From positions 1 to 32,352 of the forward strand of contig CAKJXZ020000019.1 of NCBI GenBank assembly GCA_918234285.1: a DNA stretch of 32,352 nucleotides, in the 5' to 3' direction. The stretch comes from Pseudomonadota bacterium. GTDB taxonomy: Bacteria; Pseudomonadota; Alphaproteobacteria; RF32; CAG-239. Shown here in pieces: positions 11,159 through 32,352 of the stretch (its first letter is position 1; every line of letters starts with the position of its first letter). The notes beneath the pieces are model-generated. The model saw only the letters and a list, made by a program, of their open reading frames with translations, ran no database searches and was not told the DNA's origin. Made by a program: the position numbers and the translations under genes.

Positions 11159-13222
11159 TTACAGAATAAATCTGTGCATCAGCGCCGAAACATCGGCCAA
11201 CAACGCTATACGGTTTTGGCGTTCGCGCAAGTCGTCCGAAAGCACCATATTATTATCAAAGAAAGTATTAATCGGTGCACAAATCTCGCTCATAACCTTC
11301 ACAAAATTCATATAATCCTTTTGCTCGAGGTATTGCTCCGCCGCCGCTTTGGCCGCAACAAATGCCTCCGCCGCGCGTTTCTCGTCCGCATTGTTTACCA
11401 GAGCCATCGCAAATTCGGTTTGCTTCTTTTCCTTCATCAAATTATCGATACGCTGCATGGTTTGCGCAAACAACTTAAACGGCTCGGCCGTCAGCAAATT
11501 ATTGATAACCTGCGCCTTAACGTCGATTTCCGCCACATTAATCGTCGCCAAATCAATCCGGTTGATGACGTCGGTTATCGAATAATGTAAATCTTCATTC
11601 AGCATCACCGAGAGGCGCTGTTTGATAAAGCCGATTACATAATCAACAAAGTCAGCTTTGCTCATATTTTCAGCCTTATAATAGCCTTCATACAAATCGG
11701 CAACTTCGGCCACAAAATCAGCCAATGCGATATTAAAGCCGAATTTACGGACAATCAGCAAAATACCGATTGTCTGGCGGCGCAACGCAAACGGGTCCTG
11801 CGAGCCGGTCGGCTTCAAATTAACCGCGCACAAACCCAAAATGGAATCCAATTTATCGGCAATTGCCATAACGGCACCGAGTTCGGTTTCCGGCAATCTA
11901 TCGCCAGCAAAACGCGGCAAATATTGTTCTTCAATAGCTTTGGAAACACTCTGCTCATAGCCTTCTTCCGCTGCATAAATACTTCCCATAATGCCTTGCA
12001 ATTCGGAAAATTCGCCCACCACGGTCGAAACCAAATCCGCTTTCATAATCGCCGCCACCGTATCGATTTGCTTATCCGCACCGAGCGCCGATTTTTGCGC
12101 CAACAAATGCGCCAACGCGGCAACACGTTTCATTTTTTCGGCATAACTTCCCAACTTGGTCTGAAACACCACTTGCGGCAATTTCTTCGCTTTATCCGCC
12201 AACGTGGTCTTTTTATCTTCGTGATAGAAAAACTCGCCGTCTTTCAAACGCGCCGTCAACACACGCTGATTGCCTTTGGTAACACCGTCAATACCATAAT
12301 CATCGCCGTTACGCACAAACACAAAACAGTTGGCCAATTTACCGTTACGATATGCCGGAAAATAGCGTTGATGGTCTTTCATCGGCGTAATCACAATCGG
12401 GTCCGGCATCGCCAAAAATGCCTCATCAAAATGACCGAGAGCCGCCGTCGGATATTCCACCAAATTCACGATTTCATCAAGCAAACTCTCGTCAATCGGC
12501 ACCTGAATATCATTCTTTTGTTCCAAATCCTGAATTTGCTGTAAAATCAACTTCTTGCGTTCATCTTGGTTCACAATCACAAAAGCTTCTTTAGCCTTGG
12601 CGAAGTAGTCGTCAACCGATGTAATCGTATATTTTTTATCCGCCAACATTCTGTGTCCTTGCGTAAAATCGGCCGCACTTAAAAATTCCAGTGCAAAATC
12701 CAACCGCCGCGTCCCCAAAAACGCCAGCAACCAACGTATCGGGCGAATATATTTGCCGACAAACACATTCCAACGCATCGGATTCGGCTGATATACCGAC
12801 ATAATCAAATCCGGCAGAATCTTTTCCAAAATTTCGCCGGTATCTTTCGCCGCCGTTTTCTGCACGGCAAAGATATATTCAACCCCCTTGATATCCTTAA
12901 CGAAAGTATCATCCAAAGTCAGTTTGCGACCGGCCAAAAAGCCCTCCAACGCCTTGGTCGGTTTGCCGTTTTCATCATACGCACTCTTTTGCGCCGGACC
13001 TTTGACTTCCACTTCCTGACCGGCCACCTGCAAAGCAACGTTTTCGATATATAAAACCAAGCGGCGCGGTGTATAAAAAACCTTCAATCCGGCAAATTCG
13101 ATTAAATTTTCCGCCAAAGCCTTCTGCGTGTTGTCGCGCAGACTTTCAGCCATTCTTTTGACATACTGTGCCGGAATTTCCTCTATTCCGATTTCCAGTA
13201 AAAACTTTTCACTTGCTGTCAT
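11159..13222 (-). CDS. glyS: Glycine--tRNA ligase beta subunit
   Basis: FLLEIGIEEIP, TPRRL, IRPIRWL, LVEYP, HQRYFP, EFSELQGIMG, PTGSQDPFALRR. Confidence 0.97.
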   Translation of the reverse strand: MTASEKFLLEIGIEEIPAQYVKRMAESLRDNTQKALAENLIEFAGLKVFYTPRRLVLYIENVALQVAGQEVEVKGPAQKSAYDENGKPTKALEGFLAGRKLTLDDTFVKDIKGVEYIFAVQKTAAKDTGEILEKILPDLIMSVYQPNPMRWNVFVGKYIRPIRWLLAFLGTRRLDFALEFLSAADFTQGHRMLADKKYTITSVDDYFAKAKEAFVIVNQDERKKLILQQIQDLEQKNDIQVPIDESLLDEIVNLVEYPTAALGHFDEAFLAMPDPIVITPMKDHQRYFPAYRNGKLANCFVFVRNGDDYGIDGVTKGNQRVLTARLKDGEFFYHEDKKTTLADKAKKLPQVVFQTKLGSYAEKMKRVAALAHLLAQKSALGADKQIDTVAAIMKADLVSTVVGEFSELQGIMGSIYAAEEGYEQSVSKAIEEQYLPRFAGDRLPETELGAVMAIADKLDSILGLCAVNLKPTGSQDPFALRRQTIGILLIVRKFGFNIALADFVAEVADLYEGYYKAENMSKADFVDYVIGFIKQRLSVMLNEDLHYSITDVINRIDLATINVAEIDVKAQVINNLLTAEPFKLFAQTMQRIDNLMKEKKQTEFAMALVNNADEKRAAEAFVAAKAAAEQYLEQKDYMNFVKVMSEICAPINTFFDNNMVLSDDLRERQNRIALLADVSALMHRFIL

Positions 13223-13235
13223 CTAAAAAACTCCT

Positions 13236-14078
13236 TTAGCACTCTTGCGACAAATACGATTTGGCGATTTCTTTCATCAAATTACGAATACGCGCAATAT
13301 AGTTGGCACGTTCGGTAACGCTGATGGCTCCCTTGGCATCCAACACATTAAACATATGCGAACATTTCAGCGCAAAATCATACGCGGTGTAGATATTGCC
13401 CAAAGCGGTCAAACGCTTGGATTCCGTTTCATAATTGTCAAAATCGGCAAACAGCTGCTTCTCGTTGCACAGCTCAAAACAATATTTTGAGTGGTCGTAT
13501 TCGCGGTGATGATAAATATCGCCGTATTTTTCCGCCGGACTGTATTGCAAATCATACACGTTTTCCACGTTTTGCAAATACATCGCAATGCGCTCGAGAC
13601 CGTAAGTAATCTCCGCCGTAATCGGCTTGCAGGTCATACCGCCGATTTCCTGGAAAAAGGTAAATTGCGTAATTTCCATACCGTCGAGCCATACTTCCCA
13701 ACCCTTACCGAAAGCGCCGAGCGTCGGGGACTCCCAGTTATCTTCCACAAAGCGAATGTCGTGCTCTTTTTTGTTAAAGCCGATATATTCCAAACTCTTG
13801 ATATAAATATCCACAATATCAATCGGCGACGGTTTGATAATTACCTGAAACTGATGGTGCTGATACAAGCGGTTCGGGTTATCGCCGTATCTGCCGTCGG
13901 CCGGCCGGCGTGACGGTTCCACATAAGCGCGCGCCACCGGCTTTTCACCGAGCGCACCGAAAAAAGTCAGCGGATTCATGGTACCGGCGCCCTTTTCCAC
14001 ATCGTAAGGTTCGCCGATGGTACAACCTTGTTCCAACCAAAAATCCTGCAATTTGCGTTTTAATTCCTGAAAATTCAT
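13236..14078 (-). CDS. glyQ: Glycine--tRNA ligase alpha subunit
   Basis: [40 protein letters not shown]; ATG at 14078. Confidence 0.97.
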
Positions 14079-14109
14079 TAAGTGCCTCACTTATTTATAA
14101 TTCTGCGGG

Positions 14110-14195: not shown

Positions 14196-15404
14196 TCAGC
14201 CGCGCCGCAATTCATCCAACGTTTGCGCGATAACATCGGCATATTCCGCCACAGCCTCAGCCGACGTACCTTCGCGAAAAATCGGCATTCCGAAAGAATT
14301 TTGCAACACTTTTTCCGTCAGCGGCAACTTGCCATAACCGTAATTGACCGCCTTATCGGCAAACACTTTGTGGGTGTGCAAAAGCGGATAAAATTCGTTT
14401 TCAATCGGCACTCCTCTTGCTTTGAGCACCGCAATTAAATCCGCTTTAGACACGGTAAAGTCTTGCATATCAATCAAAATGCGATAGCTAAAATGCCCGC
14501 CCGGCCGATAAAACGGCGACTTTTGCCGCGGAACTCTGACCGACGGAATTTTTTCCAGGGCCGCATAAAACATTTGGTGCAGTTTGTTTTCTTTTTGTAA
14601 ACGTTCTTCCAGGTTTTCCGTTTCGACCAGCGCCAATGCCGCACAAAGCGGGCTGATTCGATGTTTATACCCTAATCCGAGATATGCCAAATCGGTATCT
14701 GCGACCAATTCTTTTCTGGCGCGCTCGTAGTGGCCCAAAAGCAACGCCCGCTCATAATACTTTTTATTGCCCGTCAAAAAGATACCGCCCTCGCCGGCAC
14801 ACAACGGCTTGCCGGCCTGCATACTGAAACAACCGATATCAAACAGCGTCCCTACCGGTTTATCTCGCCAATATGCCCCTAAAACGTGCGACGCATCTTC
14901 AATAACCGGAACATAATACTGTTCCGCAATTCGCTTAATCTCATCCAAATCCGTAACCTGCCCGAACAAATGCGGAACCACAATCGCCGCCGTATTTGGA
15001 TTGATTTTGCGCTCCAAATCCTGCGGGTCGACCATCAGAGTTTCCGCGCTTATTTCCGCAAATCTGACGGTTGCACCGCAATTTATTGCCGGCAAAATCG
15101 AGGCCCACCACGTAAACGACGGACACAATATCTCTTTACCTTTCAAAGCTTCGGCCGGTTCATATCCTTCGCCGACGGCAAAAAAAGCCGAATGCAGCGT
15201 GGCCGTTCCGTTATTCATCGTCAACACATAATCAACATTGAAGAAACTCTTTAATTTTTTCTCCAACTCGCGCGTCATACCGCCTTCATCGGGAAAAGAT
15301 ATATCGCGCTTTGTCAGACACTTCTGCAGTGCGGCCAAGTGCTTATCGGTCAATACCGGATACGTAAAAGATGCCTTGTTTTTCATCATAACCTCCGCTT
15401 TCAT
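14196..15404 (-). CDS. DegT/DnrJ/EryC1/StrS PLP-dependent sugar aminotransferase
   Basis: NNGTATLH, PSFTWWAS, VIEDASH, FSMQAGKPLCAGEGG; GGAGG suggests an alternative start at 15386/15389. Confidence 0.93.
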   Translation of the reverse strand: MKAEVMMKNKASFTYPVLTDKHLAALQKCLTKRDISFPDEGGMTRELEKKLKSFFNVDYVLTMNNGTATLHSAFFAVGEGYEPAEALKGKEILCPSFTWWASILPAINCGATVRFAEISAETLMVDPQDLERKINPNTAAIVVPHLFGQVTDLDEIKRIAEQYYVPVIEDASHVLGAYWRDKPVGTLFDIGCFSMQAGKPLCAGEGGIFLTGNKKYYERALLLGHYERARKELVADTDLAYLGLGYKHRISPLCAALALVETENLEERLQKENKLHQMFYAALEKIPSVRVPRQKSPFYRPGGHFSYRILIDMQDFTVSKADLIAVLKARGVPIENEFYPLLHTHKVFADKAVNYGYGKLPLTEKVLQNSFGMPIFREGTSAEAVAEYADVIAQTLDELRRG

Positions 15405-16822
15405 AAATATTTTTCAATGATGGAATCCGCCGCCATCAACCCCGTTGCGCCGGCTGCGGAAATCCCCGAAACCACCCCGCCGGCGTCGCCGATAAAATAC
15501 AGCCCTGGACAGTTGCTTTCGGCCTTTTTTAACTCGAGCCGCGGCGCATATTTCACTGCCGAAGGCGCCAGCAACACCGTATTGTTATAAAAATAATTCG
15601 AGTCCGTAACCACCGACTTCATCAGCTCGATAAACCATTCAATCGCAATCCCGTATTTTTCCGCCAACGGCCGCAAATTAGCCGCAACACAGCCGCTCAA
15701 GGTTAAAGATAAATCATCGATATCCGCCTGAGCCGATTTACTTCCGCTCAAGTAATCCGCCAACTTTTGCGCCGGAACTGCTCCTTTTTCCAAAGTATTG
15801 GCCTCATGCACAAATTCCGCCGCAAATTTGCAACTGTTTTTACCTGCCGGCACTTTCACTTTTGAAAGCAGCGAAAAATTTGTTTTATTGCCGCGACACG
15901 AATAAGCATGTTGCCCGTCCAAAACAAAATCCTCGCTTCCCCAGGCAAACGGATATTTCATCATTCGCCCGCCGCCGCAAATACAAAAAGTCCGATGTTT
16001 GCCGCAGGCGCTTTTAATGCGCGGATTGCAGGCACCGCCTAACAGTTTATCCGCAATTTCCGCCGAAGTTTCCACTCTGAATCCCAATTCTGTTTCCGCC
16101 GGAAAACTATGTTGTAAGGCGAATTTACGGATAAATTCCGCCACCATTGGAATGCTGCGATAACCGGTTGCCACCGCTACCGTTTTGGCATAAAACTTTT
16201 CCGTTTCTTCGCCTGTTTTTTGCTTACACGATACTATAAAATCCCCGTTTTTATCAATGTCCGTAACCGTTCTGCTGCCGAGAAGGCATACGCCGTATTG
16301 CGCCAAATCCCGCTCCAACTTGGCCGCGATTTTTTTAATATCATCCAACCTGGCCGGTATGGTTCCGGAAGGAGACGCCCCCACACGAGCATTACCGCAA
16401 ACGGCTGGCTCAGCCGCTGGCTTTTGCAACCCGGCCGCAAACATATAGTCATAAAATTTCATAATATACGCTTCCGTCGCATCGCCCAAAGCCGCCTCCA
16501 AAAACGGCGAAAACTTGAAATCGGCGATACGCTCTTTTTGCTCGCCGTCCGCATAGGGATAATTATCAAAATTTGCTTCAAAATGCAGAGCCGCCCCGCC
16601 CAATCCGGACAGGCATGAATGTCGCCGGCAGCACGGCTCGTGCAAAGAACAATCATAAGTCTGACGCACAAAATGAGCGCACAAATTATCGTCAAATGCC
16701 CCGCCTTTATCGAGCAACAACACTTTTTTCCCGTTTTGAGCGAGCGAGACGGCGCACAAAGCACCGGCCGGGCCGGCACCGATAATAATCGTGTCAAACT
16801 TTTTTACTTTATTTTCTTCCAT
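15401..16822 (-). CDS. FAD/NAD(P)-dependent oxidoreductase with Cys-rich insert
   Basis: IIIGAGPAG, Cys cluster before SGLGGA, RTFCICGGG, GLYFIGDAGG..SGI. Confidence 0.85.
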   Translation of the reverse strand: MEENKVKKFDTIIIGAGPAGALCAVSLAQNGKKVLLLDKGGAFDDNLCAHFVRQTYDCSLHEPCCRRHSCLSGLGGAALHFEANFDNYPYADGEQKERIADFKFSPFLEAALGDATEAYIMKFYDYMFAAGLQKPAAEPAVCGNARVGASPSGTIPARLDDIKKIAAKLERDLAQYGVCLLGSRTVTDIDKNGDFIVSCKQKTGEETEKFYAKTVAVATGYRSIPMVAEFIRKFALQHSFPAETELGFRVETSAEIADKLLGGACNPRIKSACGKHRTFCICGGGRMMKYPFAWGSEDFVLDGQHAYSCRGNKTNFSLLSKVKVPAGKNSCKFAAEFVHEANTLEKGAVPAQKLADYLSGSKSAQADIDDLSLTLSGCVAANLRPLAEKYGIAIEWFIELMKSVVTDSNYFYNNTVLLAPSAVKYAPRLELKKAESNCPGLYFIGDAGGVVSGISAAGATGLMAADSIIEKYL

Positions 16823-18924
16823 ACGACATCCTTTATCCGAACATCTGTAAGATAAGAATAAATAAAGCCTTCGGTCGCCCGCGCCATCTTCTTCAAACGC
16901 CGCAAACGATTTGCGGCATAAGCCGGAATTTCTTTAATCATATCTTCCGCAGTCACTCCCGTCAGCTTGCCGTAAAAAGCCAAAAGCTTGGCGATAAGCC
17001 TTGTTAAATCAGATTTTTGATACAAAATTTTTTCCGCCAACTTAGCCGGTGACAGCTTGTTTTCCGCATAGATAATTCCAACCATCAGCACAAAATTCAA
17101 AATATCGAATAGCTGATTTTCATTCTTTTGAAAATCTTCCCAATCCACAAAAACCAACTCACCGTTTTTCTTCACGATAACCTGCCACGGATCTATATCT
17201 CCGTGCACATATCCCATCGGCTCGATTGCATCAATACGAGACGATTTATGAAATTCGGCCAAACATTCTACGGATTTAAGCAAAAACTCCTCGGCAGCGG
17301 CCGGATTTTGACGCATCAGTGACGACAACAGCATCCCTTCCTCGTATTTTTGAATAACGTATTTGGAATTACACTTACCGCACACTTCCGGTACAAATGC
17401 GAATTTCTTCAGCAAAGACAGCGCCTCATATTCGGTTTTGGCAAATGAATCCCGTCTGGTTTTTGCCGCTTTTATAAAATAATCATACTTTGTCGGCGCA
17501 TTTTTATTCAGCTTCAAATCCACAAAACAACGCTGATAATTTTCCTTGGCGATTCCTTTGTTATAGCGTAAATGAGCTTCCCAAACCTCCGGCTTCACTC
17601 CCAAATCGGATACGGCCTCTTTCAAAATTTTACGAATTGCCGATTGCGGCCATCTGTTGGCAAACTCCACCAACTGCACGGTTTTTCCGCAGGATTCGCA
17701 CTTGGCGGTCCATCCGTCTTTAACATACATACTGCCGTGACAATTATCACAGCTGAATTCCTCTATAACAGAGAAAGTTTCCGGCATGGTTTGAGTACGA
17801 ATTTTGCGCGAAAGAACATGCGAAACACCGTTTTTGGCAGCAAAAGAATCATACATTTTCATAACGGCCGCAGTATCTTCCGCACCGCCTATCATCGGTG
17901 CCGTGCGGTTTTTCACGCAGTCAACAAATGCCGCTAATTCGTTAATATAGCCGTAAAGTGCGTGCGAATGCAAACTGAGAGCCCCCAAAGGCCTCCGCAA
18001 ATTCGGGTTCCAAACGTGAGAATGCGTACCATCGGCTCGCACAAACGAAAAATCCCGTCCGTAAGAACCCGGATTCCCCGGCTCGTGCAAAACCACTTCT
18101 TCGGCATTTTTCAATTCAATAAGCGTGCCGTTGTCAATCTTATCGGAATTGCCGACAATTCGCATATATTCAGCCGGTCCGGTAATGCTTATGCCACCCA
18201 AAATCCGCACAACTCCGGTCAGGCCGTTTTTATATTCCAACACGGCGACGGCATCATTTTCGCCACCGCGATAAGTCGTCATCTTATACGGGCAACCGAA
18301 CAAAAACTGAATCTGCGATAAAATATGGACGATATCATCCAAAAATCTCCGCGCATTCACATCCGTCAAATCGCGGACATCCGACGGAAAACTGACCGCA
18401 TAAGACACATCGAAAGATTGCGGCGCTCCAAATTTTGGGGTACTGATTAACTTTTTAACCTGTTGCAATGCCGGCGCAAACATCATTTTAAATCCGGTCT
18501 GAAAGAAGGTATTGCCTTTTTTTGCCGCCGCCGTCAATAAACCGAGTTGCTGATACGACGCGGCCGGAGGTTTTTCCAACCAAACAGGAATTCCCTTTTC
18601 CAAAAACTGCGGAATAATATCCGGATACAGCGGATTTCCGGTTTCCGGCGAAAAGCCGATAATCACCAGCAAAGCATCGTATTTTTCCGGAAAAGCCTTA
18701 AGCAGTTCGTCGGTCGAGCTGCACCAGTTTGCCACACCGTGATACTTGGCAAACAACTCCGCCTTTTCCGCGTTTTTATCGCAAAAGACGGTCAGCACCG
18801 CGTCCGGAATATAACGTATTGAAGGCAAAATATTGCGATACACATGACTGCCGCAACCCAAAACGGCCAGCCGCACCGGCTTTTCCACCTCGATAATTTC
18901 TCCTTCGATACCCAGCAATTTCAT
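16804..18924 (-). CDS. Gfo/Idh/MocA oxidoreductase fused to a Zn ribbon and an APH/choline-kinase-like phosphotransferase
   Basis: LAVLGCG, WLEKP, DDIVH; CDNC...CESC; HGDIDPWQV and FVDWE. Confidence 0.85.
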   Translation of the reverse strand: MKLLGIEGEIIEVEKPVRLAVLGCGSHVYRNILPSIRYIPDAVLTVFCDKNAEKAELFAKYHGVANWCSSTDELLKAFPEKYDALLVIIGFSPETGNPLYPDIIPQFLEKGIPVWLEKPPAASYQQLGLLTAAAKKGNTFFQTGFKMMFAPALQQVKKLISTPKFGAPQSFDVSYAVSFPSDVRDLTDVNARRFLDDIVHILSQIQFLFGCPYKMTTYRGGENDAVAVLEYKNGLTGVVRILGGISITGPAEYMRIVGNSDKIDNGTLIELKNAEEVVLHEPGNPGSYGRDFSFVRADGTHSHVWNPNLRRPLGALSLHSHALYGYINELAAFVDCVKNRTAPMIGGAEDTAAVMKMYDSFAAKNGVSHVLSRKIRTQTMPETFSVIEEFSCDNCHGSMYVKDGWTAKCESCGKTVQLVEFANRWPQSAIRKILKEAVSDLGVKPEVWEAHLRYNKGIAKENYQRCFVDLKLNKNAPTKYDYFIKAAKTRRDSFAKTEYEALSLLKKFAFVPEVCGKCNSKYVIQKYEEGMLLSSLMRQNPAAAEEFLLKSVECLAEFHKSSRIDAIEPMGYVHGDIDPWQVIVKKNGELVFVDWEDFQKNENQLFDILNFVLMVGIIYAENKLSPAKLAEKILYQKSDLTRLIAKLLAFYGKLTGVTAEDMIKEIPAYAANRLRRLKKMARATEGFIYSYLTDVRIKDVVWKKIK

Positions 18925-20186
18925 TAAAGTAACCTTTCCATATCTGCCGTTATTTCATCAATCCGTGCCGCCGGAAAAGAAAAACAGCGTTCAAAATACA
19001 ATCTTTGCTTCTCTGCCAAACTTTTGCGATATGCCTTGCCGGCAATATCCGCCAAAATTCGGCCGTATCTATGCTTCAATGCCGTAAAAACCGCGCCGTT
19101 TTCGTCATGCAAAATATCGGCAATATGCTCATAAAGCACCGTAATATCACTTTCTTTCATCCCCTTCAGATGCCTAATAAACGGTGTCAGCATCTGCCCC
19201 GGAAAAATCTCCTCCGGATTTTCGACATGTCCGGTGAGTGCGCGATAATTCGGCCAATGTCCGTCGTGCTGTTCCGGCAAAAATATCAGCGGTTTGTCAT
19301 AAGCCCGACTTTCATAAAAAGTAGTCAGCGACGGTGGCGCAATTACTGCTGAAGCGGAACTGATTGTTTCGTAATAATCATGATAATTCAAATGTTTGCA
19401 CAGTACCGACGGGAAACCGGTTTGCTTAATAATCTCCGCCAGATTTTTCATCACAAACGGGTGTCCGATAATCAGCAGACGATTTTCTTCTTTTTGCAAA
19501 AATTCACCAAATCCGTCTTTGGTAACCCCGAGAATCAATTTGCAATAATCCAACACGTTTTCCGGTTTGACAATCGGATTAAATTGCCCGCAAAAACTCA
19601 GCACTGCCGTATTGTTATCCGATTTTTTCGCCGCGGCAAATGAGGCATCGACAATCGGCGCCACAATCTTTTTATGCGGAATATATTCAATATTGCGCGA
19701 GGCTTTTTCTTCGTCAAAACACGCCTGCAAATACGAAATCAGAGCATATTTATGAGCCAAATACTGTTGCTCGTGCGGGTGCGTATTTTTCCCGATATAA
19801 GCCAAATCTTCCAATGTTTGCACCGGCAGATTATCCAAAAAATCAATCCGGTCCGGACGCCAATCCCAAAACCAATACAGGCTGTCAATCAAAACCACCG
19901 GCACCTTGTAAATATGCGCCGTCAGCACAATTTTCGGTTCCATCACGGAAACCACCGCATCATAATACTTATCGCTTATACGCTGCTCAATCATACCGCG
20001 TTGCCGATTATCGTAAACATTTTGAAAGATATTTCTCCGCGTGTTGGCCAGCTCGTAAGCCGTTCCGGTGCCGATAAAATCTATCGCGATATGCGGGTTA
20101 TCCCGCCGCAACAACGAAGCTACAACCGCCCCCTTTGCCGCCGGACCGAACCCGAAACCTTGTGCCGAAACCAGAACTCTTTGCAT
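18924..20186 (-). CDS. GT-B glycosyltransferase resembling CGA-synthase-related proteins
   Basis: N-terminal VLVSAQGFGFGPAAK, VVSVMEP, IDSLYWFWDW, APPSLTTFYE...PLIFLPEQH; TAATG coupling to the next gene. Confidence 0.65.
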   Translation of the reverse strand: MQRVLVSAQGFGFGPAAKGAVVASLLRRDNPHIAIDFIGTGTAYELANTRRNIFQNVYDNRQRGMIEQRISDKYYDAVVSVMEPKIVLTAHIYKVPVVLIDSLYWFWDWRPDRIDFLDNLPVQTLEDLAYIGKNTHPHEQQYLAHKYALISYLQACFDEEKASRNIEYIPHKKIVAPIVDASFAAAKKSDNNTAVLSFCGQFNPIVKPENVLDYCKLILGVTKDGFGEFLQKEENRLLIIGHPFVMKNLAEIIKQTGFPSVLCKHLNYHDYYETISSASAVIAPPSLTTFYESRAYDKPLIFLPEQHDGHWPNYRALTGHVENPEEIFPGQMLTPFIRHLKGMKESDITVLYEHIADILHDENGAVFTALKHRYGRILADIAGKAYRKSLAEKQRLYFERCFSFPAARIDEITADMERLL

Positions 20187-20190
20187 TCCC

Positions 20191-20847
20191 CTACCTTTTT
20201 CTTAAAGCAGTAAACCAAAATTTTTGCGGCACGTCTTCTTTGCCGGCCACCGGTATATTGTCAAACACATACATTTCCTCAACATAAAAATCCGTCAAAA
20301 ATGTGTTCAATATATCATCGGAAGTCAGCCTTATCGGCCCGTTACCGGAAGTTGACGGCGGCATCAAATAAGAAAAACCGCGCATAAAATAGCGACCGCC
20401 GCTTTTCAGGCAATATTTCACAGCATTTTTGTATGCTTGACGATCTTGCGGCAAAATATGATGAAAACACCCTTGGTCCGTAACAATATCAAATGCGCCC
20501 GCAAATTCTTTCAGTTGCTCGATTTCCAAAAAATTCTGCACTCTGAAATCAACCTTGGTATCCAGGAGGGCCGCATATTTTTCGGCCTTAGCGATAATGG
20601 CCGGGTCGGCATCGATTGCCGCCACCCGGTGTCCGTGCCTGGCCATAAAAACCGCCTCGGTACCGAAACCGCACCCGACATCCAAAATACTCATGCCGGC
20701 CGGAATTTGCTTATTGATAATCTTTTTCAATATTTCAATCCCCACCGCACCGGTTACCCACGGAACATTCTCGAGAGTCGCCTTATCGTGATACACTTCG
20801 TTAAAGTATTGCTTTACCGTCCCTTTATCTGTATGTATATCCGCCAT
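20191..20847 (-). CDS. Class I SAM-dependent methyltransferase
   Basis: ILDVGCGFG, AAID, FDIVTDQGCFHHI, LKSGG. Confidence 0.92.
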   Translation of the reverse strand: MADIHTDKGTVKQYFNEVYHDKATLENVPWVTGAVGIEILKKIINKQIPAGMSILDVGCGFGTEAVFMARHGHRVAAIDADPAIIAKAEKYAALLDTKVDFRVQNFLEIEQLKEFAGAFDIVTDQGCFHHILPQDRQAYKNAVKYCLKSGGRYFMRGFSYLMPPSTSGNGPIRLTSDDILNTFLTDFYVEEMYVFDNIPVAGKEDVPQKFWFTALRKR

Positions 20848-20850
20848 ATT

Positions 20851-22071
20851 CTATCCTTTATTTTTGATTAATTGCGAGAAATAGGTATCTTTTTTAACCA
20901 TCGCCGGCAATCCGCACCGCCCGACCAGACAATCCGGAATTTTTAATGTTCCGTCCTCCTGATACATACATTCGAGCAAAGCGGCAAAAACGCGCGGAAT
21001 AGCAAAGCCCGGGGTATTATAGGTGTGTACGTATTTTTTCTCTCCTTCAGGTGTAAGATAAGTTGCGTTAAGGCTGCACGCCTGAAACGTGGCGCGATAG
21101 CTCAAGCTCGAAATCTCCAGCCATTTTTTAAGCCCCGGCGCATAAATTTCGTAGTCGCACGTAAATGAGCCGGCTTGCCCCATATCGCCGGTGCAGAGCA
21201 ACAATTTTCGCCACATAAAGCCCAATTTTTCCAGCAAATTCTCCAACATGGCCGACAAGCTGTCCAACACTTCTTCCCACTGGTCTTCCCGACAAACGGT
21301 AAACGATTCCACTTTGCCGAATTCGTGCAAATTGGTATATAAGTCAATTTCCCGTCCTCTCTCAACACGGAAAGATCTGGCAAAACCGACAACTTTCATC
21401 GGCAACTCATCGTATTCAAACTTGCGATTTCTGATTAAGCTTGTTTCCTGCATCTCGATTGTCGGGTTCAAATACAAAGATGTACCTTCGATTTTATAAA
21501 CGTTATGCTGATGTTTCGGAAACGAACCGGCCATAAAAAACGTGCGTTCGTGCGTCAAAATCGGCATTGATATTTCGTCGTAGCCGTAATCGGCATGATG
21601 GTCAAGCATCAACCCGATGAGCGCTCTTTCCAACTTTGGTCCCACTCCCGACAAAACCGGAAATCCCATTTCGGCGATGGTTTCGTTCATCGCTTTGGAA
21701 AAAATTCCGAACTCGGCACCGATTTGCTCATAATTCTTCTTTGTTTGATATGTTTTCGGAGCAGACTCCTTTAATATGACATTCTGCTCCGAAGAATTCC
21801 CTATCGGGACGATTTTATGTGAAACATTAGGTAAGCTCAAATACAATGCCAACATTTTGCCTACTTCGTCTTGCGGATTATTCACCTCCCGCAGTGTCAT
21901 ATACCGCGCCCGTTCTTCCAGTTCTTCGGTCGGTGGCAGAGGCGTTGTGCTTGCAACCTTTTTATATTGTTCCAGAAAGTTCTTAAACATCTCCAAACCC
22001 TTGCGTGCTTCCATCGCCGCGCACAAACTTTCGTAGTTGGCCGGATTTACCAAATATTCTAAAGAATTCAT
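20851..22071 (-). CDS. serS: Divergent serine--tRNA ligase-like protein (class II aaRS paralog)
   Basis: LPN..VPIG, LERALI, YLNPTIE, FRVE..HEFGKVE, LCTGDMG, EISS, VHTYN; many signature residues substituted and the N-terminal arm is short. Confidence 0.8.
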   Translation of the reverse strand: MNSLEYLVNPANYESLCAAMEARKGLEMFKNFLEQYKKVASTTPLPPTEELEERARYMTLREVNNPQDEVGKMLALYLSLPNVSHKIVPIGNSSEQNVILKESAPKTYQTKKNYEQIGAEFGIFSKAMNETIAEMGFPVLSGVGPKLERALIGLMLDHHADYGYDEISMPILTHERTFFMAGSFPKHQHNVYKIEGTSLYLNPTIEMQETSLIRNRKFEYDELPMKVVGFARSFRVERGREIDLYTNLHEFGKVESFTVCREDQWEEVLDSLSAMLENLLEKLGFMWRKLLLCTGDMGQAGSFTCDYEIYAPGLKKWLEISSLSYRATFQACSLNATYLTPEGEKKYVHTYNTPGFAIPRVFAALLECMYQEDGTLKIPDCLVGRCGLPAMVKKDTYFSQLIKNKG

Positions 22072-22118: not shown

Positions 22119-22148
22119 AATATACACCACGGTATAAAATACTGTCAA
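22119..22148 (-). promoter_or_regulatory. Putative promoter of the biosynthetic operon
   Basis: TTGACA(22148-22143)-18 bp-TATATT(22124-22119); TATAC-N6-GTATA dyad overlapping the -10 box and spacer. Confidence 0.6.
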
Positions 22149-22280: not shown

Positions 22281-22589
22281 TTCGCTGACCGGCATACTTC
22301 CGTCTGCCGGCGGCTCCTTGTCGAACGCTCTTTTCCGAGCGTTCTAATCCTCTGCCCCACTAAAAACAGCAAAACCGCCCAAACGGGCGGCTTGCTGTTT
22401 TTGGCAGGGGCAGAACGATTGTTTCGATCCGCTCCTCCTTCGCTCTCATCGCTTCGCGACCGGCGCGCTTCCGCTAGCCTTTCGTTTGGCGTCGAACGCT
22501 CTTCCCGCGTTCTAATCCTCTGCCCTACTCAAAAACACCAAAACCGCCCAAACGGGCGGTTTGTCGTTTTTGGCAGGGGCAGAACGATT
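22281..22589. repeat. Two ~170-bp imperfect tandem units with direct and inverted copies of the tRNA-Trp 3' end around a terminator hairpin
   Basis: GTCGAACGCTC at 22320 and 22491; TGGCAGGGGCAGAACGATT at 22402 and 22571; AACCGCCCAAACGGGCGG at 22373 and 22542. Confidence 0.85.
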
Positions 22590-25906: not shown

Positions 25907-27229
25907 ATGTCAGAAATTAAAGTAAGATTTGCCCCGAGCCCTACCGGTTTTATGCACATCGGCAACACGCGTACGGCGCTGTTTAACTGGCTCTTGGCCA
26001 AAAAACTGGGCGGAAAGTTTATGCTCCGTATTGATGATACGGATTTTGCCCGCTCCAAAAAAGAATATGAAGACGCTATGCGCGAAAGCCTTAAATGGCT
26101 TGGTTTTGATTGGTGTGAAGAAGCCCGTCAGTCCGCACGTTTCGAGCGTTATGACGCCATGCGCGACAAACTCATTGCCCAAGGCCGCATTTATCCGTGT
26201 TACGACACACCGGAAGAATTGCAAATCAAGCGCAAACGCGCCATGTCCAAAGGCGAAGCGCCGATTTATGACCGTCAGGCCTTGCGCTATACGCCGGATG
26301 ATATTGCACGTTTTGAAGCCGAAGGACGCAAACCGCACTACCGATTCAAGCTCAATCCGGGGATTATCGAATGGGAAGATATTGTGCGCGGACATTGCCA
26401 ATATGAGGCAGAAAAATTAAGCGACCCGATTATCATTCGCGAAGACGGCAGTTATCTGTATCACTTCCCGTCCTGCATTGACGATTCCGATTTCGGCATT
26501 ACCCACATTGTGCGCGGCGAAGACCACGTTACCAATACCGCGGCACAAATCCAGATGTTTGAGGCCATCGGCGGCAAAGTTCCGACTTTTGCTCATCTGC
26601 CGCTGTTGACCGGTGTGGAGGGTAAGCTTTCCAAGCGTTTGGGCAGTTTAGGTGTGCGCGAACTCAAAGCCGAAGGTGTGGAAGCTCTGGCCATCTGCTC
26701 GTTCTTGGCTAAACTCGGCACTTCCGATGCCATCGAGCCGTATTACTCTCTTGATGAACTGGCACAATCGCTTGATTTTGCCAAACTCGGCCGCTCACAG
26801 CCGAAATTTGACGAAGAAGAACTCAAGCATTTCAACACCAAATTCGTGCGCTCTCTGCCGTATGCGGTAGTTAAGGACCGGGTTGACGTCAGCGAAGAAT
26901 TCTGGAACAAAGTGCGCCCGAATTTAAATGTGGTTGATGACATTAAGGCTTGGGCTGATATTTGTCATCACGAAGTAACTCCGGTTATGGAAGATAAAGC
27001 ATTGACCGATTTGGCTGCTTCGGTATTACCGCCGGAACCGTGGGATGAAAACACGTTCAATGAGTGGCTGAATGAGGTTAAAGCGCAAAGCGGTAAAAAA
27101 GGCAAAGAGCTGTTTCACCCGATTCGCAAGGCCCTGACCGCGCTCGATAACGGACCGGAGCTGAAAACTCTGTTACCTCTCATCGGCTATGAAAGAACCT
27201 TAAAACGTCTCAAAGGCGAAAAAGCATAA
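25907..27229 (+). CDS. gltX: Glutamate--tRNA ligase
   Basis: RFAPSPTGFMHIGN, LRIDDTD, THIVRGEDH, KLSKR. Confidence 0.98.
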   Translation: MSEIKVRFAPSPTGFMHIGNTRTALFNWLLAKKLGGKFMLRIDDTDFARSKKEYEDAMRESLKWLGFDWCEEARQSARFERYDAMRDKLIAQGRIYPCYDTPEELQIKRKRAMSKGEAPIYDRQALRYTPDDIARFEAEGRKPHYRFKLNPGIIEWEDIVRGHCQYEAEKLSDPIIIREDGSYLYHFPSCIDDSDFGITHIVRGEDHVTNTAAQIQMFEAIGGKVPTFAHLPLLTGVEGKLSKRLGSLGVRELKAEGVEALAICSFLAKLGTSDAIEPYYSLDELAQSLDFAKLGRSQPKFDEEELKHFNTKFVRSLPYAVVKDRVDVSEEFWNKVRPNLNVVDDIKAWADICHHEVTPVMEDKALTDLAASVLPPEPWDENTFNEWLNEVKAQSGKKGKELFHPIRKALTALDNGPELKTLLPLIGYERTLKRLKGEKA

Positions 27230-27297
27230 CACTACTTTCCGCGTTATTCTTAGTGAACATTACGAGCGAAGAATCCGGATAAAAAAGAGGAAAAAAT

Positions 27298-28674
27298 ATG
27301 ACACAAATTTATTTGCACGATACTTTAAAACAACGCAAAGTCCCGTTTACACCGATTGATGAAAACAATGTACGGATATATGTCTGCGGCCCGACCGTTT
27401 ATGACAAAGCCCATCTCGGCAACGCCAAAACGCCGGTGGTCTACGATGTTTTGTATCGCCTGATGTGTCATGTTTACGGTAAAGACCACGTAACCTATGT
27501 TTCCAACATTACCGATGTTGACGACAAGATTTTGAACAAACACAGAGAAACCGGCAAGTCCATTCGCGAAATTACCGAACAAACTTATAATTGGTATATT
27601 GAAGATATGGCCAAGCTCAACGTTTTGGCACCGAATTATCGTCCGCGTGCTACCGAATATATTGCCGATATGATTGAGCTGGTCAAAAAATTGCTGGCAA
27701 ACGGCCACGCCTATGAAGCCGAAAAACAGGTTTTGTTTGATGTGGATTCAATGCCGGCATACGGCCGTCTTTCCGGCCGTTCGATGAAGGAAATGCTGGC
27801 CGGTGCACGTATTGAAGTAGCCGATTATAAAAAGAATCCGGCCGATTTTATTTTGTGGAAACCGTCGGATGCCGACCAACCGGGTTGGGACAGCCCGTGG
27901 GGTTACGGCCGTCCGGGTTGGCATTTGGAGTGCTCGGCGATGAGCTCCAAGTTGCTCGGCAACGATTTTGATATTCACGGCGGCGGCTCCGATTTGATTT
28001 TTCCGCACCATGAAAATGAGTTGGCGCAATCTTGCGGCGCGTTTCCGGGCACCAACTTTGCTCATTATTGGGTGCATACCGGTATGCTGATGATAAACGG
28101 CGTCAAAATGAGTAAGTCGCTCGGCAATTTTTACACGGTTGATGAAATCCTGGCAAAATATCCGGCCGAAGCTTTGCGCTTGTTGTTTTTAACCACGCAC
28201 TATCATCAGCCGTTCAACTTTACTTTTGAAGGATTGCAAAATGCCAAGAGCGTGTTGGATAAATTCTATAATGCCCTTTTGAAAAATGCCGATGTGCCGA
28301 CCAAAGAGGTTGCACCGAACCCGAAGGTGGTAGAAGCGCTGGCCGATGATTTGAACACTCCGTTAGCCTTGTCTTATCTGCACGAAACCGTAAATAATTT
28401 AAACAAAGCCGAAACTGCCGAAGAGCGTACTGCGCTCAAATCCGAATTGTTGGCCGATGCCTATATGCTGGGGCTATTGTATAATGAGCCGGAAGCATGG
28501 TTCAAGGGCGAAAACAATGACGAAGCAACCGAAATCGAGGCGCTGATTCAGCAACGTGCCGAAGCTAAAAAGAATAAGGATTGGGCCACCGCCGACGCTA
28601 TTCGCAATTCGCTCAAAGAACGCGGCATCATTTTGGAAGATTCCCCGTCCGGCACTACTTGGAAAAAGGCATAA
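27298..28674 (+). CDS. cysS: Cysteine--tRNA ligase
   Basis: YVCGPTVY, HLGN, GRPGWHLECSAM, DIHGGGSDLIFPHHENE, KMSKS. Confidence 0.99.
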   Translation: MTQIYLHDTLKQRKVPFTPIDENNVRIYVCGPTVYDKAHLGNAKTPVVYDVLYRLMCHVYGKDHVTYVSNITDVDDKILNKHRETGKSIREITEQTYNWYIEDMAKLNVLAPNYRPRATEYIADMIELVKKLLANGHAYEAEKQVLFDVDSMPAYGRLSGRSMKEMLAGARIEVADYKKNPADFILWKPSDADQPGWDSPWGYGRPGWHLECSAMSSKLLGNDFDIHGGGSDLIFPHHENELAQSCGAFPGTNFAHYWVHTGMLMINGVKMSKSLGNFYTVDEILAKYPAEALRLLFLTTHYHQPFNFTFEGLQNAKSVLDKFYNALLKNADVPTKEVAPNPKVVEALADDLNTPLALSYLHETVNNLNKAETAEERTALKSELLADAYMLGLLYNEPEAWFKGENNDEATEIEALIQQRAEAKKNKDWATADAIRNSLKERGIILEDSPSGTTWKKA

Positions 28675-28983: not shown

Positions 28984-30150
28984 TTAAAAATTAACAATTT
29001 CACCGAGTAATTCAGCGGCTTCTCTAACCGGCTTACTTGATAAATAAGCATAACGTTCCGTAGTGCGTTGGCTTTTATGTCCGAGCATCTTGCTGACAAT
29101 ATATAATGACTCCCCATTTTCAACGCAAATACTTGCGCCCTGATGGCGCAAATCGTGTATGCGATAATCCTTTATACCTGCGTTCTTTAATATTGTGCCC
29201 CATGCCCTTTTGATGTCTTTTAATCTATCAGTATAATTCGGGCCTTTGAAAATATAATCATTCATTTCACGTTCCGGCAAATCATAAAGTTGTTTCAGGA
29301 TTTTTATAGCTGTATCGCTTAGATAAATCGGTTTCCAGCCGGTTTTACTTTCTGGTTGAAACAGGATTTTACGTTCCCAATCAACTCTGCTCCAAAGTGC
29401 TGTCAATATCTCATTTTTGCGTGCCGTGGTTAATAATAGCAATTTTATGGCAGAAACGGTATATATCATATCGCGTTTACGGTCTAAAGCCAAAATCAAT
29501 TCCGCCTTCAACGAATCCATCTCACTTTCGGATAAAATACGCTGTCTTGGTTGTTCCGGATAATGTTCGATATTTTCCAAATCTATAATTAAACCGCGCT
29601 CTTTTTTGATTTGTTTGCATAAAACACTTGCTAATGCCAACATTCTATTTGCACAATATGGAGCATTCGCTTTTGAAACGTGTATTGCTTCAAAATCTTT
29701 GCTTGTTAGGTCAAGCAATTTTTTCTTGCCGAGTTTGGGTTTTATATCGTGTTCCCAATATGTCTTATTATTTTTTAGGTATTGTTCTGGATTTCTATGT
29801 TTTGGAACAAAATTTTTTACAAAGCAGTTATCCCAAAATTCTTCGAGCGTTTCACAATCTCGATATTCTTCCTTTTGTTCTTGTGGATCTTCGCCATTTT
29901 TTACTTTTAATAAAAACTCTGCGGCTTTTTCTCTGGCAATTTGTGTCGGCATAAATGAAGTTTCGCCAAATAAATAATATCGTTGAATTGCATTTCTGCC
30001 GCCTTCCTTATGATAATAACGAAGCACATATTTCTTTTTACCGTTTGGAATAACTTTTAATCCAAAACCGGTAATTGTGTCGTCCCAAATATAATAAATC
30101 TTATCTGTTATTTCGGCTTTTTGAACAACCGTTTGCGTTATATGAACCAT
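28984..30150 (-). CDS. Tyrosine recombinase/integrase with N-terminal arm-binding domain
   Basis: WDDTITGFGLKV..GKKKYVLRY; ARKNEIL, HDLRH, LGHKS..TTERY catalytic residues intact. Confidence 0.96.
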   Translation of the reverse strand: MVHITQTVVQKAEITDKIYYIWDDTITGFGLKVIPNGKKKYVLRYYHKEGGRNAIQRYYLFGETSFMPTQIAREKAAEFLLKVKNGEDPQEQKEEYRDCETLEEFWDNCFVKNFVPKHRNPEQYLKNNKTYWEHDIKPKLGKKKLLDLTSKDFEAIHVSKANAPYCANRMLALASVLCKQIKKERGLIIDLENIEHYPEQPRQRILSESEMDSLKAELILALDRKRDMIYTVSAIKLLLLTTARKNEILTALWSRVDWERKILFQPESKTGWKPIYLSDTAIKILKQLYDLPEREMNDYIFKGPNYTDRLKDIKRAWGTILKNAGIKDYRIHDLRHQGASICVENGESLYIVSKMLGHKSQRTTERYAYLSSKPVREAAELLGEIVNF

Positions 30151-30286
30151 TTTTACCTCTCAATTAAAATTTATCTCTCTATACTATTCTGGCATACCCA
30201 CCGCCGAGTGCAAGTTCTTTTTTAGGTAAAATCAACAACTTACAATATTTTACAATTAAAAACAACGACAAACTGTTAATAGAATC

Positions 30287-30958
30287 TTAATTAAAGTAAC
30301 CGGTCATCTTTGCAACCTGCAGATTCGGCGAATCCCAAGTATTAAAGGTTTCCAAAGTTAAACTATTGCCATGAATAACGCGTACGCTTAAACCGAGCAG
30401 ACTAAGCTGCGTGTATGTCATATCCACACACAACGCGTCAATATCTGTCGCCTCTATATAAATCTTGCCGCCTAAATTATCGTAACCGCGATTTTTCATA
30501 CACCGAACCAAACCAATAACCATCGCACCGGAACCGCACGCTGGCTCTGCAACTCTAAAATAACCTTTTTCCTTTAAGGCATTTTCCACGTCGTCACCCA
30601 AAGTTATTTCGGCCATAAATTCGCAAATATGTGGCGGTGTGAAAAACTGGCCGTTAAAATGTTGGCTCAAGTTCAATTTTTCAAAAATTGTTCCGAGATA
30701 ATCTTTCGGCTCTTGTAATAATAATGACGTTAAATTCGCCAACATCAGCGGAAAATAGTCATTAAAAACCTCTTTTTTATACTTGCCGACAACTTTCAAA
30801 TACTCATTTTCGCGGCTTTCGTATAAATCCCGATAACAGCTTTTTGCCATTATCGGGTTATCTTTATAGGCATTATGCAAAGAACAACTGCATATCTTGC
30901 AAAAATCCTCGAATACTTGATACAAAGGAAAATGGCTTAATCTTGAAACTGTTTCCAA
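30287..30958 (-). CDS. N-6 DNA methylase-like SAM-binding domain protein; frame open upstream to 31018
   Basis: DYLGTIFE, GQFFTPPHI, EPACGSGAM, VIHGNSL; only a weak TTG start. Confidence 0.8.
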   Translation of the reverse strand: METVSRLSHFPLYQVFEDFCKICSCSLHNAYKDNPIMAKSCYRDLYESRENEYLKVVGKYKKEVFNDYFPLMLANLTSLLLQEPKDYLGTIFEKLNLSQHFNGQFFTPPHICEFMAEITLGDDVENALKEKGYFRVAEPACGSGAMVIGLVRCMKNRGYDNLGGKIYIEATDIDALCVDMTYTQLSLLGLSVRVIHGNSLTLETFNTWDSPNLQVAKMTGYFN

Positions 30959-30987
30959 CTTCTCGATTAAGCCTTTTTCTTCAAAAA

Positions 30988-31707
30988 CTACTTCTTGCTT
31001 TTCTTGCTCGATTTTTTTTTAGCCTTTGCCGACTTCTTTGTCTTTTTGAAATTCGGCTCAACTTCCTTAGATTTACTGGCTTGTTCGAATACTGCCTCAT
31101 CTTCCGGTGTCATAGGTTCCGGCTTTAATTCAGCTTCATTGTCCTCATATTCCACCGCCAAAGAGATTTCAGAAACATTAAGAGGAGCATTTTCGTTTTG
31201 CTCCTCTTGTGTTACGTCTTCGCTTTCCATTTCCTGCTGTTCGTAAACCATTTTACCGTCGCTGTCGTATTTTATGACGTGACATTCGGCAACAACTTGC
31301 GGTTTCTTTTCTTCTTCCGGTGCATCCATGCCTTTACGTTTTGCATACTGTTGGCAAAAATCAATAAATTCGGCACTTACTGTCGCCGGTTGCTTTTTAG
31401 TAATTGTGTCGTTAAAAATCCGCTCAATGTCTATTATGGTAATTTTTCCGAACTTCTCGCTATAGTCAGCGATTGCACCATCACGCTGAACCGCGCTGTA
31501 ATCATTGTCGCTATAAACATTGACCATAGGAGCAAAGCCGTCGAATTTCATAAAAAAGTGGAACTTATTATAAAAGTCATACATAGCAACTTTTAAGCCA
31601 TCGCCGGTTTCCATTGTGGCAATCGGCTTTTTGCGAGTTAATGTCGGTTTACGGTTTCTGAATATCATCTCGGTATAGCCCGGATATTTATTTACATCAA
31701 ATGTCAT
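30988..31707 (-). CDS. Hypothetical protein with acidic then Lys-rich C-terminus; possibly the N-terminal part of a frameshifted fusion
   Basis: AAGGAG RBS; 239 aa; A9 run shortly before the stop. Confidence 0.75.
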   Translation of the reverse strand: MTFDVNKYPGYTEMIFRNRKPTLTRKKPIATMETGDGLKVAMYDFYNKFHFFMKFDGFAPMVNVYSDNDYSAVQRDGAIADYSEKFGKITIIDIERIFNDTITKKQPATVSAEFIDFCQQYAKRKGMDAPEEEKKPQVVAECHVIKYDSDGKMVYEQQEMESEDVTQEEQNENAPLNVSEISLAVEYEDNEAELKPEPMTPEDEAVFEQASKSKEVEPNFKKTKKSAKAKKKSSKKSKK

Positions 31708-31718
31708 TTTCGTTCTCC

Positions 31719-32090
31719 TTAATATTCTTCTGGTAATAAAATTGTTAAAACACGGTTTGTGAGTGCCGGATTACTTGGGTCTTCCGAACAAAACTCATGG
31801 TTCAAGTCATAATAATCAATCTTCCAAAATACCTGAACATCATCAACTTCAAGACTTCCGAAGTCATGTTCATTATATGGGTCATTTTCATAATCAAATT
31901 CGTTAAACTCTCTGACTTTCTGTAAAACCTTTGCTTTTAATACCGGCTCTAAGTTATCAATACCATCGGTTATCAAAACTTGTCCGCCGATAAAAGTCTT
32001 GCGGAATTTATCGTTAAGTTCTCTAATTTGCTTTCTTTTATTCGGATTGTTTTGCCAATCGTCATCTAAAATATTTTCTGCCATATTCAT
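31719..32090 (-). CDS. DUF3768 domain-containing protein
   Basis: IRELNDKFR, NDPYNEHDFG, FWKIDYYD, TNRVLTILLPEEY. Confidence 0.85.
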   Translation of the reverse strand: MNMAENILDDDWQNNPNKRKQIRELNDKFRKTFIGGQVLITDGIDNLEPVLKAKVLQKVREFNEFDYENDPYNEHDFGSLEVDDVQVFWKIDYYDLNHEFCSEDPSNPALTNRVLTILLPEEY

Positions 32091-32352
32091 TTCTAACCTC
32101 TTGATTTTACTAAATTATCTTTACATATTCTATACTGACATATCCACGGTGAAACGCAAGTACTTTTTTTAATAAAAATGCTGATTTTTCAATAATTTAG
32201 CATTATTTTTAGGTAACAATTTATTACTAAAATATTTTTTATTGTTTTTTAATGATTCATTTTATATAGTGAATCTCGTTGGGATAAGCCCAATTCTCAA
32301 CTGGATATTGACAATCCAATCGACGCGGGCAAAGACATAGCTTTTGTATTAC

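Follow-up and report, generated by a model that had tools for sequence, protein, structure and literature searches.

A paralog of seryl-tRNA synthetase (SerRS), encoded in a six-gene cassette together with predicted sugar-modifying enzymes, was found in an alphaproteobacterium of the RF32 lineage (assembly GCA_918234285.1). The gene lies on the minus strand at positions 20851–22071 of contig CAKJXZ020000019.1, whose full 32,352 nucleotides were analyzed and are referred to here as the window; this is contig C19 of a 2.0-Mb genome in 71 contigs, with a completeness rating of 100%. The paralog (406 aa, ATG start) combines the core of a class II aminoacyl-tRNA synthetase (aaRS) with reduced tRNA-binding parts. 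We give an even chance to the reading that it is a SerRS-derived, amino-acid-activating ligase, which acylates a sugar amine made by the products of the neighboring genes; that it no longer serves translation is part of this reading and stands on the same even footing. Going by the predicted functions of the six genes, the product of the cassette is most likely an amino-acid-decorated amino sugar or a nucleoside-like compound.

The likeness of the paralog to SerRS is far beyond chance, as judged by profile and structure-database matches. The TIGR00414 serS model matches with an E-value of 2.5e-67 and 227.7 bits, below the curated cut-off of this equivalog (301.65 bits), and the match covers only model positions 83–414 of 418. 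The sole Pfam match is PF00587 (E 1.5e-20, residues 196–367), and the closest solved structure is that of a bacterial SerRS, 2dq3_A (E 3.3e-51). An earlier reading of the same DNA, made from the letters alone (the sequence-only reading), had listed the open reading frame (ORF) with a series of motifs, and all of them are present in the 406-aa translation: LSLPN (residues 78–82), PTIE (203–206), FRVERGREIDLYTNLHEF (234–251), EISSLSY (319–325), FQACS (329–333), and HTYNTPG (349–355). The gene is under purifying selection. Two related loci, L004 and L005, come from metagenome-assembled genomes of uncultured Alphaproteobacteria, with paralogs 97% and 77% identical to that of the window. Compared with L004, the non-synonymous (dN) and synonymous (dS) divergences are 0.016 and 0.28, giving a dN/dS of 0.057; the values for glyS and glyQ in the same comparison are 0.072 and 0.019. 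Between the window and L005 the synonymous sites are saturated, and no usable dN/dS was obtained. A value of 0.847 for the DegT gene of the cassette (against L004) was discarded as an artifact of an indel in the ungapped comparison.

The paralog is not the only serS-like gene in the genome. A canonical serS is located on contig C30 (L001, 1465–2745), where a 426-aa ORF scores 421 bits with TIGR00414 and carries the motifs LRMPN and HTLNNTG...PR. In a tree of 47 sequences, a branch with 100% support divides 19 paralogs from 28 canonical SerRS (quick IQ-TREE run, with the Shimodaira–Hasegawa-like approximate likelihood ratio test, SH-aLRT, as the only support measure). The genome's own serS falls among the canonical sequences, on an end branch of 2.17 changes per column. 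The sequence-only reading had proposed that the paralog is probably not the housekeeping enzyme and had advised a search for a canonical serS elsewhere in the genome. The second gene on contig C30, the separate clade, and the reduced arm and motif-2 loop described below all bear this proposal out; the paralog is neither the sole serS nor does it cluster with the housekeeping enzymes. Three genomes of the same family also score low with the SerRS profile (E ~1e-69 to 1e-71, against ~1e-85 to 1e-95 for most others), and this, together with the long end branch, suggests that SerRS is fast-evolving across the whole lineage.

The catalytic core is conserved throughout the paralog family. In an alignment of 25 sequences (19 paralogs and six canonical SerRS), P170 of motif 1, T204 and E206 of TxE, R235 and E237 of motif 2, F251, E255 of KVE, E319 of EISS, and R360 and E367 of motif 3 are invariant in 25/25 rows. 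By reference to seryl-adenylate complexes of T. thermophilus, we take these residues to serve ATP, the alpha-phosphate, the metal, and the amino and hydroxyl groups of serine. On this alignment, the adenylate-forming residues are intact in the paralog family, and the earlier observation that the motif 2 and 3 arginines are kept holds for every aligned sequence, where the Glu of motif 2 is kept as well. Motif 2 (residues 234–251, FRVE...HEF) is encoded at 21319–21372 and the motif 3 region (residues 349–367, HTYNTPGFAIPR...E) at 20971–21027, both on the minus strand. The class II core, with the residues of motifs 1 to 3, TxE, KVE, and EISS, is thus the same as in canonical SerRS (TIGR00414; 6he3, 2dq3, 1sry).

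Around this core the paralogs differ from canonical SerRS by a set of family changes. These are N202 (Ile in 5/6 canonical rows), Q208 (Pro in 4/6), S233 (Cys in 6/6), and E250 (Gln in 6/6), and P359, which 18/19 paralogs share with the genome's own serS and where 5/6 canonical rows have Gly. In terms of motifs, HQF has become HEF, IPTAE has become NPTIE, and the GR of motif 3 has become PR. The sequence-only reading had also described a remodeled substrate pocket. This stands for position 354, where the window protein has Pro in place of the canonical Ser/Thr, and does not stand for the TxE, KVE, and EISS residues, which are retained. We take the Ser/Thr at position 354 to be the partner of the serine hydroxyl in canonical SerRS. 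Among the 19 paralogs this position is Pro in seven (including the window protein), Thr in seven, and Ser in five.

Both the sequences and the structure models indicate that the coiled-coil arm and the motif-2 loop are reduced throughout the paralog family. In SerRS, the coiled coil reads the tRNA's long variable arm and guides the acceptor end into the partner subunit (PMC10817482). A short stretch before LPN, noted in the sequence-only reading for the window protein, turns out to be a property of the family: the P of (L)PN lies at residue 66–84 in 19/19 paralogs, compared with 103–107 in canonical SerRS (the pattern located the motif in four of the six canonical rows and missed two). The N-terminus of the paralog is ~22–25 residues shorter than the canonical one, and Seryl_tRNA_N (PF02403) was absent from it in the Pfam search. 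The N-terminal domain (residues 1–82; 21826–22071, minus strand) is predicted to consist of short helices, replacing the long arm. The motif-2 loop, counted from the Glu of fRxE to the His of HQF/HEF, has 10–11 residues in 19/19 paralogs (11 in the window protein) and 14 in 6/6 canonical sequences, and is thus 3–4 residues shorter.

An AlphaFold2 (AF2) model of the paralog, built on the 25-row alignment, reached a mean predicted local distance difference test (pLDDT) score of 92.8, with N-terminal helices at residues 4–8, 10–22, 26–42, 48–56, 60–64, and 69–78. A control model of the genome's own SerRS (27 rows, pLDDT 90.6), made in the same way, showed the classical hairpin, with helices at residues 25–61 and 67–101. 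The first, ascending arm helix has 17 residues in the paralog compared with 37 in the genome's own SerRS, and the second, descending helix is split into pieces of 9, 5, and 10 residues compared with a single helix of 35, so that the arm is about half as long as the canonical one, and broken. The motif-2 loop is confidently modeled in the paralog, whereas residues 262–269 of the canonical model have a pLDDT below 50 and are predicted to be disordered. The paralog model fits bacterial SerRS structures with Z-scores of 43–45.5, the root-mean-square deviation (rmsd) at Z 45.5 being 1.7 Å over 368 residues. The E. coli arm-deletion mutant 9qof_A (Z 44.9, rmsd 1.5 Å, 353 of 368 residues) fits it as well as full-length SerRS does. 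Methanogen-type SerRS reach a Z-score of at most 30 (29–30), and structures of aa:CP ligases, which join amino acids to carrier proteins, were not among the 50 structural matches listed.

The paralog family is very rare and coherent, as far as profile and identity searches can tell. In a collection of 5.8 billion sequences, the best 19 matches (P0001–P0019, 35–97% identity) have PF00587 only, and from P0020 onward the matches also have PF02403, save three short fragments. A family profile searched against 1.84 billion representatives found five clusters at 483–605 bits and a 310-aa fragment at 356 bits, and canonical SerRS reached at most 332 bits. Among the loci L004–L085, six scored 583–604 bits with the family hidden Markov model and the remainder at most 351; two of the loci are duplicates (L006 of L004, and L008 of L007). 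In an even sample of 401 alphaproteobacterial genomes, of which the unpublished G040 and G240 enter only the negative tally, a single one has a paralog-type match, the window's own genome (587.9 bits; next best 322.8). The paralog was not found in the three same-family genomes searched, which have only the housekeeping copy. Fused longer forms were sought and none was found at an E-value of 1e-40 or better, which is weak evidence. In the open-access literature and bioRxiv we found no description of a family of bacterial-type SerRS paralogs with a reduced arm that are encoded in sugar cassettes.

The paralog gene lies in a predicted sugar-modifying operon. From the paralog on, six minus-strand genes overlap or are separated by gaps of at most 5 nt. 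A promoter-like site, TTGACA-18-TATATT (22119–22148, minus strand; 11/12 positions, a consensus match only), precedes the paralog start by ~50 nt, and another near-consensus promoter stands ahead of glyQ, directly after the cassette. The six-gene order is kept in L004 (93–99% identity) and L005 (57–77%), whereas the flanks differ; in L005, glyQS is inverted and other genes lie upstream of the cassette. Because of the tight packing, the promoters before and after it, and the conservation as a block, the cassette is, on these genomic grounds, one unit.

The second gene (20191–20847, 3 nt from the paralog gene) encodes a predicted S-adenosylmethionine (SAM)-dependent methyltransferase of 218 aa with PF13649, PF08241, and TPMT-like matches, which is 99% identical in L004 and 72% identical in L005. 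It is followed by a GT-B glycosyltransferase of 420 aa related to CGA synthases (18924–20186), which has no Pfam match and scores 39.7 bits with TIGR04467. This model matches 22/23 members of the glycosyltransferase family, the best at E 4.4e-21, far below the cut-off, and the Atlas clusters adjoining the 420-aa protein are CGA synthase and PF27895 (scores 0.96–0.98). The fourth gene (16804–18924) encodes a 706-aa fusion of an N-terminal GFO/IDH/MocA sugar or inositol dehydrogenase (PF01408, residues 18–144) and a C-terminal APH-like kinase (RIO1-like match, residues 492–596). The dehydrogenase half has weak iolG and UDP-GlcNAc 3-dehydrogenase matches and, in the PDB, matches to a sugar 3-ketoreductase and a scyllo-inositol dehydrogenase. 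The kinase half (residues 370–706) lies near APH clusters in the Atlas (0.91–0.93), which is a lead only. An FAD-dependent oxidoreductase of 473 aa (15401–16822), with FAD/NAD Rossmann matches at residues 9–43 and a C-terminal part resembling 3nlc, overlaps both of its neighbors. The last gene (14196–15404) encodes a DegT/DnrJ/EryC1-type sugar aminotransferase of 402 aa (PF01041, E 2.6e-69), whose PDB matches include sugar, 2-deoxy-scyllo-inosose, and scyllo-inositol aminotransferases. All five genes lie on the minus strand.

In three of the 23 glycosyltransferase homologs (P0273, P0277, and P0278), with lengths of ~610 aa, a SLOG cluster4 domain forms the C-terminal part (residues 431–597 in P0273). 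SLOG/LOG enzymes free bases from nucleotides. A fusion of this type may join a base-releasing to a base-glycosylating enzyme and would suit a glycosyltransferase which takes a free base. A LOG-like base-releasing partner near the cassette, seen in L005, was considered as well and set aside. The window genome has its only LOG on another contig, and proximity is uninformative because a LOG was found in 13/14 control genomes.

From these predictions the following pathway can be proposed. Like SerRS, the paralog would bind ATP together with serine, or with a small amino acid resembling it, and form the aminoacyl-adenylate. The aminoacyl group would then go to the amine of a small molecule and not to tRNA-Ser, and an amide would result. 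The acceptor would be built by the five co-transcribed neighbors: the CGA-synthase-related glycosyltransferase may link a sugar to an aglycone, nucleobase-like or other, the GFO/IDH/MocA domain may oxidize one hydroxyl to a ketone, and this ketone may be converted to an amine by the DegT enzyme. Tailoring or masking of the product could fall to the methyltransferase, the FAD enzyme, and the APH-like kinase. The formation of the amide, the acceptor, the amino acid used, and the independence from tRNA are what we infer from the gene content. A ligase acylating a sugar amine without tRNA, which the sequence-only reading had already suggested, fits because the glycosyltransferase, dehydrogenase, and DegT genes are conserved next to the paralog, and because there are precedents in the AbmK/AbmF, MilI, and MshC systems.

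In the biosynthesis of albomycin and SB-217452, AbmF joins an amino-thionucleoside to seryl-adenylate supplied by the SerRS AbmK (also SerRS2). There, too, an in-cluster SerRS copy activates serine, which ends up in an amide at a sugar nucleoside's amino group (PMC9032320). Besides this, AbmK has tRNA-charging and resistance functions, and the condensation falls to a second aaRS-like protein, AbmF, whereas the cassette has one aaRS-like gene, with reduced tRNA-binding parts; this comparison was made by description only. For mildiomycin, MilI, which has a SerRS-like region, is proposed to form an L-Ser amide on a cytosyl-hexose, at its 4'-amine, with the cytosyl-hexose coming from a CGA synthase (bioRxiv 10.64898/2026.02.25.707955). 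The window cassette likewise has a CGA-synthase-related glycosyltransferase. MilI, also compared by description only and with a role that is only proposed, carries an N-terminal carrier-like (T) domain, which the paralog does not have. MshC, which ligates Cys to GlcN-Ins, is likewise an aaRS-derived, ATP-dependent ligase and acylates a sugar amine without tRNA (PMC9437257). It is a class I CysRS homolog and the paralog a class II SerRS homolog, hence the two share a logic and not an ancestry.

Other SerRS-derived proteins are more distant parallels. The aa:CP ligases (Mocibob et al. 2010) consist of a class II core related to SerRS, have lost tRNA charging, and act outside translation; they are of zinc-dependent, methanogen-type origin, have no N-terminal domain, and act on a neighboring carrier protein (PMC9437257). 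In contrast, the paralog has a core that fits the bacterial type best, a short N-terminal domain, and no carrier-protein gene in its cassette. Together with SerRS2 and SLIMP, these ligases are the known SerRS duplicates listed in a review (PMC9437257), and none of the three appears to fit the paralog family.

A distant branch of the family, with 38% identity to the window paralog, occurs in different surroundings (L007/L008 and L009), again among enzymes that would expose an amine on a sugar. Directly after the paralog and overlapping it, these loci have a conserved gene for a 508-aa protein with a weak radical-SAM (HpnJ-like) match (both genes together: L007, 9908–12696; L009, 608–3359), which may represent a second partnership for the paralog family. 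Genes for a QueC-like protein, a GNAT, and a KsgA-like methyltransferase flank the paralog. L007 also encodes cysteate-racemase-like and G1P-dehydrogenase-like proteins, a BshB1-like PIG-L deacetylase, a DegT enzyme, a GT4 glycosyltransferase, and a UDP-GlcNAc-3-dehydrogenase-like protein, and L009 an APH kinase. The combination of GT4, PIG-L, aaRS-like ligase, and GNAT in L007 follows the logic of mycothiol biosynthesis. The rRNA adenine dimethylase of L007 was considered as a resistance marker and rejected; with 160 bits, where the cut-off is 171, it is KsgA-like and may be a housekeeping enzyme.

Several points weigh against a ligase acting on a sugar amine. The linkage of the paralog to enzymes forming sugar amines is seen in three independent contexts only: the window clade, L007/L008, and L009. 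Of these, L007 may not be one pathway, because its SAH hydrolase, FolE2, and KsgA-like (160 bits) neighbors look like housekeeping genes. With 39.7 bits, where the cut-off is 300, the glycosyltransferase is no more than a relative of the CGA synthases, the cassette has no gene for a base-releasing hydrolase, and the work which two aaRS-like proteins divide in albomycin biosynthesis would fall to one here. The amino acid used by the window clade is uncertain, because position 354 has Pro in place of the canonical Ser/Thr. Finally, the N-terminal domain appears reduced rather than deleted. Its residues F32, Y77, and L78 vary little or not at all in the family, and because of this conservation the domain presumably retains some role, possibly RNA binding.

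The last point leads to the alternative that survives best, an aaRS dedicated to the pathway and still using a tRNA, probably tRNA-Ser, which either supplies a transferase or itself transfers the aminoacyl group to a small molecule. The retention of every catalytic residue and the persistence of a conserved, short N-terminal helical domain would suit such an enzyme. There are also natural-product precedents in AcmF and SbzA, which are aaRS-like, and in VlmA, which works with Ser-tRNA (PMC12945691); models for the supply of aminoacyl-tRNA would be VlmL for VlmA and AcmD for AcmF. We nevertheless consider this alternative unlikely, as the five neighbors match no aminoacyl-tRNA-using family (no Fem/GNAT, CDPS, or LanB-like match in Pfam and NCBIfam) and the genome is without a dedicated tRNA. 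Of the 45 tRNAs located by ARAGORN none was dedicated or odd, and the four tRNA-Ser among them (GGA, TGA, CGA, and GCT) are of the ordinary long-arm kind. A search of the window for a T-box or other RNA leader (Rfam, gathering threshold) gave only tRNA-Trp.

A second aaRS in a biosynthetic cluster is the classic pattern of self-resistance, and AbmK combines two roles (PMC9032320, PMC9437257). In this reading, the alternative raised in the sequence-only reading, the cassette might make a SerRS inhibitor, with the paralog charging tRNA-Ser in its presence and perhaps supplying seryl-adenylate, like AbmK. An aminoacyl-amino-sugar nucleoside would plausibly mimic seryl-adenylate, and the pocket is altered at position 354. 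This explanation is improbable to us, because resistance would require efficient charging of tRNA-Ser, yet the arm and the motif-2 loop are reduced in 19/19 members. Moreover, the retained housekeeping serS would stay sensitive, and the distant family members are found in very different loci.

The paralog could also form a mixed dimer with the housekeeping SerRS, the arm of the partner holding the tRNA while the active site of the paralog charges it. Such a heterodimer is described from the mitochondria of protostomes, where SLIMP is the partner of the arm-less SerRS2-alpha (PMC10817482). The motif-1 proline is invariant in the paralogs as well, and the fold matches that of dimeric SerRS. We regard such pairing as very improbable: the shortened motif-2 loop affects the acceptor end too, the tight operon with sugar enzymes is left unexplained, and the paralog was not found in the same-family genomes searched. 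Class II aaRS paralogs are further known to aminoacylate macromolecules, namely carrier proteins (aa:CP ligases) and protein side chains (EpmA/PoxA) (PMC9437257), but there is little likelihood of this here, given that the 0–5 nt gaps leave no space for a carrier-protein gene, that fused longer forms are missing (weak evidence), and that the fold fits the bacterial type (Z 45) better than the methanogen type (Z at most 30) from which aa:CP ligases derive.

The remainder of the window offers further observations. A second FAD protein, related like the oxidoreductase of the cassette to the VP0956/FAD-depend_C type, is encoded outside the cassette (5299–6918; PF21688, 267 bits). Besides the paralog, the window is rich in aaRS genes, namely thrS, glyQ, glyS, gltX, and cysS (2221–4152, 11159–14090, and 25907–28674). 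Upstream of the cassette, a 59-nt direct repeat (22362–22420 and 22531–22589, 93% identical) copies the 3' 19 nt of tRNA-Trp, with its terminator hairpin, to a site 169 nt downstream. An island bounded by tRNA-Trp repeats was considered and rejected, because this is the sole recurrence of the 19-nt tRNA 3' end and the repeats do not bracket the cassette. In L004 (2130–10000), the gap between the gene of a solute-binding protein and the paralog is 7.9 kb, compared with 0.66 kb in the window. The extra stretch encodes a DUF6994 protein, an ankyrin-repeat protein, an RNase T-like exonuclease, an alpha/beta hydrolase, and an ADP-ribosylglycohydrolase. By this comparison, the tRNA-Trp site looks like a hotspot of insertion and deletion. 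A phage-type integrase (28984–30150, minus strand) starts a stretch of low GC content (28984–32352; 0.37–0.39, against ~0.46 elsewhere), which is probably a separate mobile element. An anti-phage defense system was considered as well and rejected, as PADLOC gave only a generic methyltransferase-domain match (mad2) and a weak kinase match. A 580-aa protein (8256–9998) falls slightly short of the cut-off of the subtype A tannase model (529 bits against 550).

To our knowledge, uncultured gut and rumen Alphaproteobacteria have no reputation for nucleoside-type antibiotics, and the cassette with its CGA-synthase-related glycosyltransferase is undescribed. In its full form, the proposal is that a gut alphaproteobacterium has a six-gene pathway to an aminoacyl-amino-hexosyl nucleoside, with a single-enzyme, tRNA-independent, SerRS-derived amide ligase; this we put forward as tentative, with the odds against it. 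If true, the product would be akin to gougerotin, mildiomycin, and SB-217452, and likely an inhibitor of translation or of an aaRS. The genes for such an aminoacyl-amino-sugar nucleoside, six in ~8 kb, would be few enough for direct expression. The ligase would found a new enzyme family, and an aaRS would have become an MshC-like ligase for a second time, independently.

Paralogs of aaRS that act on small molecules are few, and MshC, AbmK/AbmF, AcmF, SbzA, and the aa:CP ligases have each revealed a new route to an amide or ester. The rare family described here looks like an intermediate stage on the way out of translation. Because its core is untouched, while the arm has lost half of its length and the motif-2 loop is trimmed, the family could reveal the path by which a synthetase departs from translation.

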